A DNA stretch of 64,000 nucleotides, from positions 10,329 to 74,328 of the forward strand of contig JAGFXP010000004.1 in NCBI GenBank assembly GCA_017861315.1, given 5' to 3'. Every line of letters begins with the position of its first letter. Position 1 is the stretch's first letter. The notes below the pieces were generated by a model. It was not told the DNA's origin, searched no databases, and saw nothing but the letters and a program-made list of their open reading frames with translations. The position numbers and the translations under genes are program-made. This DNA comes from Bacillota bacterium. Its GTDB lineage: Bacteria > Bacillota > Clostridia > Clostridiales > Clostridiaceae. Shown piece by piece: positions 35,187 through 39,482 of this stretch.

Positions 35187-38100
35187 GTGATGTATTTTAT
35201 GGGAAAAGTACTACATATGGGGCTTGATGTCGGCTCAACAACTGTCAAAGTAGTAATAGCAGACAAGAACGATAGCGCGCTGTACAGCAGGTACCAGCGT
35301 CATTTTTCTGATATAAAAAGTACTATTGTAGATGTAATAAGCGAGGCCTACGAGCAATTCAAAGACGATGAGATAACCATCATGATCACCGGGTCAGGCG
35401 GTCTGTCCGTTTCAAAGTGGCTTGATGTAACCTTCATTCAGGAAGTTATCGCCTGCACAAACACTGTGGAGAGGTATATCCCGAATACGGATGTCGCCAT
35501 AGAACTTGGCGGGGAAGACGCAAAGATAACATTCTTTGAAGGCGGAATCGACCAGAGAATGAACGGGACCTGTGCTGGAGGAACCGGGGCTTTCATAGAC
35601 CAGATGGCATCGCTTCTGCAGACCGATGCACAGGGGCTTAACGAACTTGCTAAAAATTACAAGGTCATACATCCTATCGCAGCAAGATGCGGGGTGTTTG
35701 CAAAAACCGATATACAGCCGCTGCTGAACGAAGGCGCCGCGAAGGAGGACATCGCTGCATCCGTCTTCCAGTCTGTCGTAAACCAGACGATAAGCGGATT
35801 AGCCTGCGGGAAATCCATCAAAGGCAATGTTGCTTTCCTTGGCGGCCCTCTATACTTCCTGTCGGAACTCAGAGTCAGGTTCATCGAGACCCTGGGGCTT
35901 ACTGAAAAACAGATAATTTTCCCTAAGAACTCCCAGCTGTTTGTTGCTATGGGAGCTGCTTTAGCATCCAAAGGGGGGGACAGGATCAAGTTCAGCTCAC
36001 TCGTGGATAGGCTTCCTAAGCTTTCCGACAAGTCTGACGAACAAGTGGAGACACTGAGACCTCTGTTTGCCGATGAGGATGAATACAGTGAGTTCAAGGA
36101 AAGGCACAGAAAAAGTGCGGTCGTCAGAAAGAGCCTCGAGGAATATTCCGGGGACTGCTTCCTTGGTATAGATGCAGGCTCCACAACAACTAAGGCAGCT
36201 CTCATTGACAGCGAAGGCAACCTTCTCTACTCCTTCTACGGAAGCAACGAAGGAAGCCCTATGACTTCCGTCGTAAAGATATTAAAGGATCTGTACAGCC
36301 ACATGCATGAGGGGGTAAGAATAGCGAACTCCGCTGTGACGGGTTATGGAGAGAGCCTCATACAGGCAGCTCTTTCCGTAGATTTAGGCGAAGTGGAAAC
36401 AGTGGCGCACTACAAGGCTTCGAGCTTCTTCCAGCCGGGTGTGGACTTCATACTGGACATAGGCGGGCAGGATATGAAATGCCTCAAGATAAAGGACGGC
36501 GTGATCGACAGCATAATGCTGAACGAGGCATGCTCGTCAGGCTGCGGTTCATTTATAGAGACATTTGCGCAATCCCTCAACACGGATGTGAGGGAGTTTG
36601 CACAGGAAGCCGTCCGTTCGAAAAATCCTGTGGACCTGGGTTCAAGGTGTACGGTGTTCATGAATTCAAGGGTCAAGCAGTCACAGAAGGAAGGCGCCAC
36701 TGTAGGGGACATCTCTGCAGGGCTGGCTTATTCAGTCATAAAAAATGCACTCTTCAAAGTAATAAAGATAAGGGACCCTAAGGCTCTGGGCAAGAGCATA
36801 ATCGTGCAGGGCGGGACATTCTATAATGACGCCGTGCTCAGGGCTTTCGAGCTGATATCAGAAAGGGAGGCTGTGAGACCCGACATTGCTGGAATCATGG
36901 GTGCCTTCGGAGCAGCGCTCATCGCCAGGGAAAGGTGCGGCGAAGGACACGTTTCAACCATCCTAAGAGAAGAAGAACTCGACAGCTTCAAAACGGTTGT
37001 TGACATGAGGAGATGCGGAAAATGCGCGAACAACTGCCTGCTCACAGTGAACCGTTTCAGCGACGGAAGGGAGTTCGTTTCCGGAAACAGGTGCGAGAGG
37101 GGAATCGGCGAAGAAATAAACAAGGAAAATATACCGAACCTTTTTGACTATAAGTACAGGAGGGTATTCGAATATGTTCCGCTTAAAAAAGAAGCGGCTC
37201 ACAGGGGCTCCGTTGGAATTCCGAGGGTTCTCAACATGTATGAGAACTACCCGTTCTGGTTCACGGTATTCACAGAACTGGGCTTCAGGGTCGAACTGTC
37301 GCCGAGGTCAACGAAAAAAGTCTATGAGCTTGGGCTTGAAACCATACCGTCAGAGTCGGCATGCTATCCTGCAAAGCTGACTCACGGGCACATCATGAGC
37401 CTTGTCAACAAGGGGCTGAAGTTCATATTCTACCCGTGCATCCCTAACGAACAGAGGGAGCAGGCGGAGGCAAACAACAACTTCAACTGTCCGATAGTAA
37501 CATCCTATCCGGATGTCATAAAGAAAAACATGGATGTTCTCGAGGAAAACGATGTTAATTTCCTGAGCTGCTTCCTACCGCTGGACAGCCCTGAAAGGCT
37601 CGTCAAGAGGCTGTGCCAGGAGCTGGCCGGCTTCGGCGTCTCCTATGAGGAGGTCTGCAGGGCGGTTGAAAAAGGATACATGGAAGATGCCGGCGTGAAG
37701 GCTGACATCAGGAAAAAAGGAGAAGAGGTGCTTAAGTATCTCGAGAGGACCGGCAGGAAGGGCGTTGTGCTGGCCGGAAGGCCTTACCACACTGATCCTG
37801 AAATAAACCACGGAATTCCCAACATAATCACAGGCTATGGGATGGCTGTCCTAACAGAGGACTCGGTGGCTCATCTGGGCCATGTTCAGAGGCCGCTGAG
37901 GGTTGTAGACCAGTGGGTTTACCACTCCAGGCTCTATGCAGCCGCCAGCTTCGTGGCAGAGACGAAGAACCTCGAGCTGATACAGCTGAACTCCTTCGGC
38001 TGCGGACTCGATGCCGTGACAACAGACCAGGTGCAGGAAATCCTGAGCGGAAGCGAAAAGATATATACCTGCCTCAAGATAGACGAAGGAAGCAATCTTG

Positions 38101-39482
38101 GCGCAGTCAAGATAAGGGTGAGGTCACTCAACGCGGCAGTCATGGAGAGAGACGGCGCGGAATTTGTTCCGAAGAAGGTAAAAGCTGAAAACAACAGGGT
38201 TATCTTCACAAAGGAAATGAGGAAAGAGCACACAATCCTGTGCCCGCAGATGTCCCCGATACATTTCGACCTTATCCAGGCGGCCTTCAGGGCTGCAGGA
38301 TACAAGCTGGAGGTGCTCCCTTCGGTGGATAAAAAGGCTGTAGACGAAGGGCTGAAGTATGTAAACAACGATGCCTGCTATCCGTCAATCATTGTGGTGG
38401 GGCAGCTCATAGAAGCCCTGAAATCAGGAAAATACGACCTGGACAGCACATCCGTCATAATCTCGCAGACCGGCGGAGGCTGCAGGGCTACCAACTATAT
38501 AGCTTTCCTGAGGAAAGCGCTCAAGGAAGCCGGGATGGAGCACATACCTGTCATTTCGCTGAACCTTGTGGGCATGGAGAAGAACCCCGGATTCAGGATG
38601 ACGCCTCTTCTCATGAACAGGCTGCTGATGGCGCTGGCATACGGCGACCTTCTGATGAGGGTTCTGTACAGGGTCAGGCCTTACGAGAAGATCAAGGGTT
38701 CAGCCAACATCCTGTTCGACAAGTGGGAAGCTCTATGCATCCAGAATGTAAAGGACGGCAACCCTATCACATATAAAAACAACGTGCACAAGCTGGTTGA
38801 AGACTTCGACACACTTGAAATACACAATGTGGTTAAGCCGAAGGTCGGAATTGTAGGAGAGATCCTTGTCAAATTCCACCCTACCGCCAACAACAACATT
38901 GTCGATATAATCGAGGCGGAAGGTGCCGAGGCTGTTATGCCTGACCTGCTGGACTTCCTCCTGTACTGCGCGTACGACGGAAACTTCAAGTATGAATACC
39001 TTGCAGGCACAAGGAAAAACAGGTTTGTCAGAAATTCCTTCATAGGGTTCCTCGAACTGTACAGGAAACATGCGAAGACCGCACTGTCGAAGAGCGAGAG
39101 GTTCACGCCGCCCGAGACAATCTACGAGCTTGCAAAAGGAGCTTCCCCCATCGTATCGCTGGGACACCAGACAGGAGAAGGCTGGTTCCTCACTGCAGAG
39201 ATGGTTGAGCTCATTGAAAGCGGTGTAAAAAATATCGTTTGCATGCAGCCGTTCGCCTGCCTGCCTAACCATGTAACAGGAAAAGGCATGATCAAGGAAT
39301 TGAAGAGGGTTTACCCTGGGGCCAATATCGCAGCAATCGACTACGACCCTGGCGCCAGCGAAGTAAACCAGCTCAACAGGATAAAGCTGATGCTCTCCGT
39401 TGCCTTCAAGGCCATGAACGACGAGAAGGAAAAGGCTGAGGCGAAAAAAATTGCAGCCGCACAAAATCACTTGACAGTTTAA
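35187..39482 (+). CDS. fused acyl-CoA dehydratase activase-related protein (two BcrAD/BadFG/HgdC-type ATPase domains plus a DUF2229/HgdB-like Cys-rich domain), 1431 aa
   Basis: DVGSTTVK...CAGGTGAF...RCGVFA, then IDAGSTTTK...CSSGCGSF...RCTVFM. This is followed by CGKCANNC and multiple conserved Cys motifs. The start may be ATG 35190/35199. Confidence 0.88.

Follow-up and report, generated by a model that had tools for sequence, protein, structure and literature searches.

A single-gene homologue of the PlsA-PlsR plasmalogen synthases in a Clostridiaceae-type bacterium

The window analysed here is a stretch of 64,000 nucleotides of contig JAGFXP010000004.1 (assembly GCA_017861315.1) from a Clostridiaceae-type bacterium, and the subject of this report is one gene within it, referred to below as the pls gene. 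It is an uninterrupted open reading frame (ORF) of 1431 codons on the forward strand, with GTG as its first codon. An ATG at 35199 is preceded 9–10 nt upstream by a GGAAAAGG Shine-Dalgarno sequence and lies at the position equivalent to the start of the homologues; for both reasons it is probably the true start, which would give a protein of 1427 instead of 1431 amino acids. Domains were mapped with Pfam, plus NCBIfam, and residues are numbered from the GTG start of the 1431-residue form. The gene and the parts of its product are as follows.

35187..39482, + strand: fused plsA-plsR-type gene, 1431 codons from the GTG, 1427 amino acids from the ATG at 35199; assigned by homology to validated PlsA/PlsR
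35220..35963, + strand: activase domain 1 (HgdC/BcrAD-type ASKHA ATPase), residues 12–259; Pfam PF01869 BcrAD_BadFG, 2e-22
36162..36926, + strand: activase domain 2, residues 326–580; Pfam PF01869 BcrAD_BadFG, 1.2e-36
37014..37094, + strand: invariant CxxCxxxC...C motif, C610/C613/C617/C636, between the activase pair and the catalytic module
37212..37868, + strand: DUF2229 core of catalytic half 1, residues 676–894; Pfam PF09989, 2.5e-92
38178..39404, + strand: catalytic half 2, counterpart of the stand-alone PlsR, residues 998–1406; 46.5% identity to Clostridium perfringens PlsR
39360..39479, + strand: long C-terminal alpha-helix rich in Lys, Ala and Glu, residues about 1392–1431; helix 797–835 of the 836 residues in the AlphaFold2 model

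The N-terminal part of the protein consists of two activase domains in tandem. The first carries the ATP motifs D14/G16/K21 and GGEDAK together with C129 and C168 as candidate cluster ligands; in a sample of 31 diverse homologues (30–62% identity) each of these residues is either invariant or conserved in 90% or more, and the validated PlsAs have them too. The second carries D329/G331/K336, GGQDMK, C449 (plus C453) and C488. It matches activases of solved structure in the Protein Data Bank (PDB), namely 4eht (2.6e-30) and 1hux (8e-28), and further activase matches are 7yyl_E and 9gai_C/D; C449 and C488 align with both bridging-cluster cysteines of HgdC (1hux) and HadI (4eht). The activase domain is also the only part recognised by NCBIfam (TIGR00241, 3.1e-70). 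The four-cysteine motif that follows the activases and precedes the catalytic module is a candidate relay site that may bind a [4Fe-4S] cluster.

The catalytic module is formed by two halves. Half 1 spans about residues 640–990, corresponds to the C-terminal part of C. perfringens PlsA and contains the invariant cysteines C726, C768 and C939; half 2 contains C1064, C1099 and C1358. Within half 2, residues 1027–1127 give a weak second DUF2229 match (7.8e-06) and an HGD-D match below threshold (PF06050, 0.019), the latter covering only ~44 residues at 15 bits against a Pfam cut-off of 28.4, and the same weak matches are given by C. perfringens PlsR and by the C-terminus of Enterococcus faecalis PlsA. 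The two halves are homologous to each other around an ACYP cysteine (hhalign E 6.8e-05), as would be expected if they correspond to an alpha/beta-like pair. For PlsA, a helix at the C-terminus that varies in length has been discussed (PMC12838417).

Residues 596–1431 (836 residues) were modelled with AlphaFold2 from an alignment of 79 sequences, with a mean predicted local distance difference test score of 89.5 and a predicted TM score of 0.87. Foldseek comparison of the model with the PDB gave eight matches at E <= 0.001, all of one superfamily, and three more members among the weaker matches. The relatives found include HadC of a 2-hydroxyacyl-CoA dehydratase (HAD; 3o3m_B), double-cubane-cluster proteins (DCCP; 7yyl_A, 6eno), and the benzoyl-CoA reductase (BCR) type proteins BzdNO (8s02_A/B) and MbdON (9g87_B, 9gai_B), at probabilities of 0.99–1.0, TM scores of about 0.40–0.54 per target and 10–15% identity. 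The matches to 3o3m_B, 7yyl_A, 8s02_A/B, 6eno and 9g87_B have a probability of 1.0 and TM scores of about 0.45–0.54 per target. The sequence profile of the catalytic part matched no solved structure in the PDB, and these relatives are found by fold comparison alone. As modelled, the catalytic module thus has the HAD/BCR/DCCP fold. Because this shared fold is combined with an HgdC-type activase that carries the cluster cysteines, the protein belongs to the BCR/HAD/DCCP superfamily, the ATP-dependent [Fe-S] ‘archerase’ systems. The initial annotation, made from the letters of the DNA, anticipated much of this. The 1431-residue ORF and every cysteine motif it quoted are present (C129/C168, C449/C453/C488, C610/C613/C617, C726, C768, C939, C1064, C1099 and C1358), and its two tandem HgdC/BcrAD-type activase domains in one chain are borne out by the double BcrAD_BadFG match and by the alignment of C449 and C488 with the HgdC cluster cysteines. 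The domain mapping and structure prediction that it proposed as a check recovered the activases and DUF2229, and the predicted fold at E <= 0.001 matched only HAD, DCCP and BCR catalytic subunits. Its description of the Cys-rich C-terminal region as DUF2229/HgdB-like agrees with the Pfam score and the fold; the region consists of two homologous halves and not of one domain. An intramolecular ATP-driven reductase, as it suggested, would be a reasonable mechanism, since the activase pair lies in one chain with a C-terminal module of HAD/BCR/DCCP fold.

The function of this architecture is already known: PlsA/PlsR and the sister enzyme Ger were assigned between 2021 and 2025 by heterologous expression. 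The PlsA/Ger architecture comprises a pair of PF01869 domains (‘activation’), a single PF09989 domain (‘reduction’) and small D/H pieces (Sahonero-Canavesi et al. 2022, PMC13159169). The two-gene operon plsA-plsR of C. perfringens (CPE1194/1195) leads to the formation of plasmalogens in E. coli (Irimajiri et al. 2025, PMC12838417), and so do the single-gene plsA of E. faecalis K-4 (4,248 bp), Lactococcus cremoris (4,311 bp) and Bifidobacterium longum subsp. suis (4,920 bp); the same work places plasmalogen synthase in the BCR/HAD family (PMC12838417). Ger, a ‘modified PlsA’ described as a glycerol ester reductase, converts sn-1 esters to alkyl ethers upon anaerobic expression in E. coli (PMC13159169).

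Validated sequences for comparison were located by searching DNA for exact matches to the published cloning primers (Table S6, PMC12838417). The forward primer for C. perfringens matches four genomes of the family that contains Clostridium polyendosporum. Both C. perfringens primers occur exactly in one genome, a single contig of 3.30 Mb, where they span 4,199 bp, the size reported for Jackson's cloned fragment; this locus encodes a PlsA of 975 amino acids followed 8 nt later by a PlsR of 420 amino acids. The E. faecalis forward primer matches ten metagenome contigs, the complete copies of which hold an ORF of 1415 amino acids (4,248 bp with its stop codon, in agreement with the published size), with a 3' end that fits the reverse primer except for one A in a homopolymer run. 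By BLASTP, the window protein shows 51.2% identity to C. perfringens PlsA over residues 11–988, 46.5% to C. perfringens PlsR over residues 998–1406, and 58.4% to E. faecalis PlsA over 1410 aligned residues. It is therefore a colinear PlsA-PlsR fusion and a full-length homologue of E. faecalis PlsA. The Pfam order (two BcrAD_BadFG domains, DUF2229, PlsR-like half) is the same in the window protein, in E. faecalis PlsA and in C. perfringens PlsA/PlsR. The C. perfringens PlsA and PlsR share only 50% and 41.5% identity, respectively, with the E. faecalis enzyme, and the window protein, judged by these identities, falls within the sequence range covered by enzymes whose activity is proven.

Twelve cysteines are invariant in the 31 homologues (C168, C449, C488, C610, C613, C617, C636, C726, C768, C939, C1099 and C1358), and so are D14/G16/K21 and D329/G331/K336, while C129, C453 and C1064 are conserved in at least 90%. 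All 15 candidate cysteines and the ATP motifs are present in the C. perfringens and E. faecalis PlsA sequences. The four cysteines of the CxxCxxxC...C motif are invariant in each of three alignments, that of the 31 homologues, that of the catalytic part, and that of a second, more distant half of the family.

The family is very large: more than 8000 clusters exist at 90% identity, and at the 50% level the catalytic part finds 6964 representative clusters with E <= 0.001. Among the matches listed, named relatives come closest in Clostridium species (70–77% identity), and the annotation names found there include ‘2-hydroxyacyl-CoA dehydratase’ as well as ‘acyl-CoA dehydratase activase-related protein’. 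A look-up of 20 cluster representatives returned few names (Parascardovia, a Barthelona eukaryote, Delongbacteria and a split form from Oscillospiraceae). The PlsR-like part used alone as query retrieved pieces of fused proteins only, without any entry named as C. perfringens, and a scan of contigs for homologues yielded 80 loci at 57–69% identity, none of them from the species with validated enzymes. Trees were built with FastTree (70 rows) and IQ-TREE (37 rows), leaving out the L. cremoris, Streptococcus mutans, Megasphaera elsdenii and B. longum sequences. In both, the family divides into two halves with a support of 100. The window protein pairs with Clostridium kluyveri and Clostridium tyrobutyricum (support 99), and this group falls with E. 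faecalis PlsA and the Parascardovia (Bifidobacteriaceae) representative in a clade of support 98; C. perfringens PlsA-PlsR belongs to the same half (100), where it branches at the base. The other half, in which the cysteine set is likewise invariant, holds proteins of Desulfosarcina, Desulfohalobiaceae, Deferribacterales, Bacteroidales and Delongbacteria with 37–42% identity to the window protein (41% for Desulfosarcina, in trees without a validated Ger sequence). This half may include Ger-type enzymes, because Desulfosarcina shares its order with Desulfatibacillum alkenivorans, the owner of a validated Ger. Pfam domain counts and the published ‘BBDHDDH’-type codes were tried as a discriminator and discarded, as at normal thresholds they did not separate the two halves.

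Barthelona sp. PCE, a eukaryote, has a full-length homologue of 1415 amino acids (KAL0229736.1) with about 40% identity, placed at the base of the PlsA half; this may be a plasmalogen synthase gene that an anaerobic protist acquired laterally. Metagenome-assembled genomes labelled Solirubrobacterales, Alloprevotella, Lysobacteraceae and Campylobacteraceae contain Clostridia-like PlsA genes with 58–77% identity to the window protein; these genes probably reflect contamination during binning or a recent transfer.

In the genome of the window (2.33 Mb, 96% complete) the pls gene is the sole gene with a BcrAD_BadFG or DUF2229 domain. The activase domains would accordingly serve the pls enzyme alone, and service to another client was rejected for want of a second such gene. 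The pls gene is intact as a single ORF in 27 of 30 relatives from the same genus, family and order. Two relatives hold an otherwise full-length copy with one in-frame stop, TAG in one (G412:C52:22159-24636) and TAA in the other (G426:C25:43069-45519), and these copies could be pseudogenes, sequencing errors or cases of recoding. C. polyendosporum (G001) and a second genome (G004) have two full-length paralogues each, of 1437 and 1458 amino acids and of 1419 and 1443 amino acids, respectively, and both also hold paired small stand-alone DUF2229 proteins of about 300 and 370 amino acids.

No conserved partner gene was found across the 80 orthologous loci, and genes for CoA-transferases, dehydrogenases (those for 2-hydroxyacids included) or aromatic pathways are absent from the window and do not recur in those loci. 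This fits a self-sufficient enzyme acting on membrane lipids: a partner gene would be unneeded if the substrate is the cell's own membrane lipid, and neighbours would not be expected to be conserved around an enzyme that acts alone.

Taken together, these data indicate that the window gene probably encodes a single-chain anaerobic plasmalogen synthase of the PlsA-PlsR type (probability about 0.8), with the sn-1 acyl ester of membrane glycerophospholipids as its most likely substrate. Its product, as predicted from homology, would probably be a vinyl ether. In the proposed mechanism, the two N-terminal HgdC-type ATPase domains would form an intramolecular pseudo-dimer that holds one bridging [4Fe-4S] cluster through C129/C168 and C449/C488. 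A ferredoxin or flavodoxin would reduce this cluster, and ATP hydrolysis would then push a low-potential electron into the catalytic module, probably through a cluster on C610/C613/C617/C636. The module, of HAD/BCR fold, would work with its two homologous halves and their three invariant cysteines each (C726/C768/C939 and C1064/C1099/C1358, with C1064 at the 90% level in the sample above). There, a diacyl glycerophospholipid would take up two electrons one after the other at the carbonyl of its sn-1 acyl ester and would then be protonated and lose water, so that the ester becomes the vinyl ether (1-O-alk-1'-enyl) linkage of a plasmalogen; a chemistry of two sequential one-electron reductions, protonation and dehydration at the sn-1 ester has been proposed before (PMC8788747). 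Two statements of the initial annotation give way here. It had called the protein an orphan, which a colinear homologue with 46–58% identity to two validated plasmalogen synthases is not, and it had held that the substrate could not be deduced, while the validated homologues act on the sn-1 ester of membrane phospholipids. It had also supposed that orthologues consistently linked to a known pathway would turn the orphan into a known enzyme. A known enzyme it is, through experiments on homologues and not through linkage, as the 80 loci show no conserved pathway neighbours.

Several points weigh against this assignment. The source organism is represented by an assembly of 104 contigs, and plasmalogen production is predicted from its genes. 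The founding enzyme from C. perfringens and the window protein are only about 50% identical, and the anchor loci were named from primer matches and fragment sizes, not from record titles. The cluster types and the electron path are deduced from cysteine conservation and fold. The assignment of the product rests on homology and tree position, not on product-deciding residues, and the boundary between vinyl and saturated ethers in the trees is not anchored, as the validated Ger sequences (Thermotoga maritima Tmari_0479 and D. alkenivorans SHJ90043) were not among the rows.

It is this last boundary that gives the strongest competitor its room. A Ger-type glycerol ester reductase would share the architecture and mechanism and differ in yielding a saturated sn-1 alkyl ether. 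The Ger proteins of T. maritima and D. alkenivorans have the same architecture of a BBD core plus small domains, the cysteine set does not distinguish the two halves of the family any more than the Pfam patterns do, and no validated Ger is present in the trees. Against these stands the position of the window protein, which clusters with the validated plasmalogen formers (E. faecalis, C. perfringens and the Bifidobacteriaceae type) and is separated by a branch of support 100 from the Desulfobacterales-type half, the order of D. alkenivorans; its closest named relatives among the matches listed are of Clostridium, and plsA/plsR are reported across Clostridiales and other anaerobes (PMC9702350). 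A Ger-type enzyme with a saturated ether as its product is therefore improbable. A related doubt concerns the Clostridiaceae-type branch itself, which might go past the vinyl ether to saturated ethers or prefer lipids other than the phospholipids of phosphatidylethanolamine and phosphatidylglycerol type observed upon expression in E. coli, such as glycolipids; this too is unlikely, and if true it would mean that product specificity in the PlsA half is more varied than the few tested enzymes suggest. More remote still is the reading of the protein as an orphan, an ATP-driven reductase or dehydratase whose substrate would be soluble, such as a 2-hydroxyacyl-CoA or, as in DCCP, a small unsaturated molecule. 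The match of the fold to HadBC, DCCP and BzdNO speaks for it, as do the database names ‘2-hydroxyacyl-CoA dehydratase’ and ‘acyl-CoA dehydratase activase-related protein’, but identity to HadBC, DCCP and BzdNO is only 10–15%, the HGD-D score stays well under its cut-off, the sequence profile matches no solved catalytic subunit, and the pathway genes that such a substrate would call for are lacking in the window and in the 80 loci; the full-length identity of 46–58% is instead to proven plasmalogen makers.

The assignment as a PlsA-PlsR-type plasmalogen synthase is an ordinary finding with nothing mechanistically new, and its main value would lie in the correction of the public annotation. It also predicts plasmalogens in this uncultured Clostridiaceae-type bacterium. 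In addition, no PlsA-type catalytic module is among the solved structures, and a compact and confidently modelled single-chain member of the family could offer a structural model of how ATP drives electron transfer within one molecule.

The immediate surroundings of the gene contain the following signals.

35092..35120, + strand: promoter-like site TGGACA-17-TAAAAT; consensus scan with 10/12 matches, a pattern match only
39471-39498: perfect sigma-70-like promoter TTGACA-16-TATAAT, overlapping the pls stop codon
39513-39727: T-box leader ahead of valS, 123.9 bits
39711-39741: T-box terminator, ahead of valS

Upstream of the pls gene lie genes for an M16 peptidase, RecX and a transglutaminase-like membrane protein, the last separated from it by a gap of 113 nt that holds the promoter-like site at 35092..35120; downstream follow the promoter, the T-box leader, valS, folC and an OPT transporter. 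The transglutaminase-like gene and the valS promoter were described as neighbours in the initial annotation, rightly so, as was the lack of CoA-transferase or acyl-CoA genes near the pls gene in the window. This order of transglutaminase-like gene, valS, folC and recX is common to a few Clostridium-type loci only. No terminator is present between the pls gene and the T-box leader, so that read-through is possible. Further upstream, judged by eye only, are a rubrerythrin/ferritin-like ORF of 189 amino acids (28544-29113) and a flavin-reductase-like ORF of 202 amino acids on the minus strand (29135-29743). A different neighbour occurs in Lachnospiraceae-type loci (n = 26: L015, L020-L022, L026-L028, L030, L032, L033, L038-L040, L042, L043, L049, L051, L056, L058, L065, L069, L071, L072, L077-L079), where a multi-pass membrane protein of ~290 amino acids with a Cys-rich, zinc-ribbon-like C-terminus is encoded near plsA. 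It lies upstream on the opposite strand in 25 of the 26 loci, as the immediate neighbour in 17 (at 90–629 nt) and one or two genes further away in eight.

Among the known systems, E. faecalis PlsA (EF1327 / Q835P9; plsA_K4, 4,248 bp) shows the same one-chain order of activase, activase, four-cysteine motif, DUF2229 half and PlsR-like half as the window protein, with an identical Pfam pattern, all the candidate ligand cysteines and a place in the same tree clade. The setting differs: facultative anaerobes have a TetR/AcrR regulator upstream of plsA (PMC9702350), whereas the window has the transglutaminase-like membrane protein and its host is a Clostridiaceae-type anaerobe. C. perfringens PlsA-PlsR (CPE1194/CPE1195; Q8XL48/Q8XL47) is colinear with the window protein and comes from a genome of the same GTDB family, but it is encoded by two ORFs 8 nt apart instead of one, and it stands at the base of the PlsA half and does not adjoin the window protein. 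Ger (Tmari_0479; SHJ90043), likened to the window protein by description, has the BBD core architecture in common and is active only anaerobically (PMC13159169); its products are saturated 1-alkyl ethers and not vinyl ethers. More distant are the HAD, class I benzoyl-CoA reductase and DCCP systems, that is HadBC/HgdAB with the activators HadI/HgdC, BzdNOPQ, MbdONPQ and DCCP/DCCP-R. Their activases are clear sequence homologues of the window domains, and the catalytic fold and the logic of ATP-driven injection of low-potential electrons are held in common. In contrast to these systems, the window protein has a catalytic module of only 10–15% identity to theirs, unites all parts in one chain, carries an extra invariant four-cysteine motif and has no pathway genes nearby, and it is proposed to act on a phospholipid ester of the membrane, where they act on CoA thioesters or small molecules.

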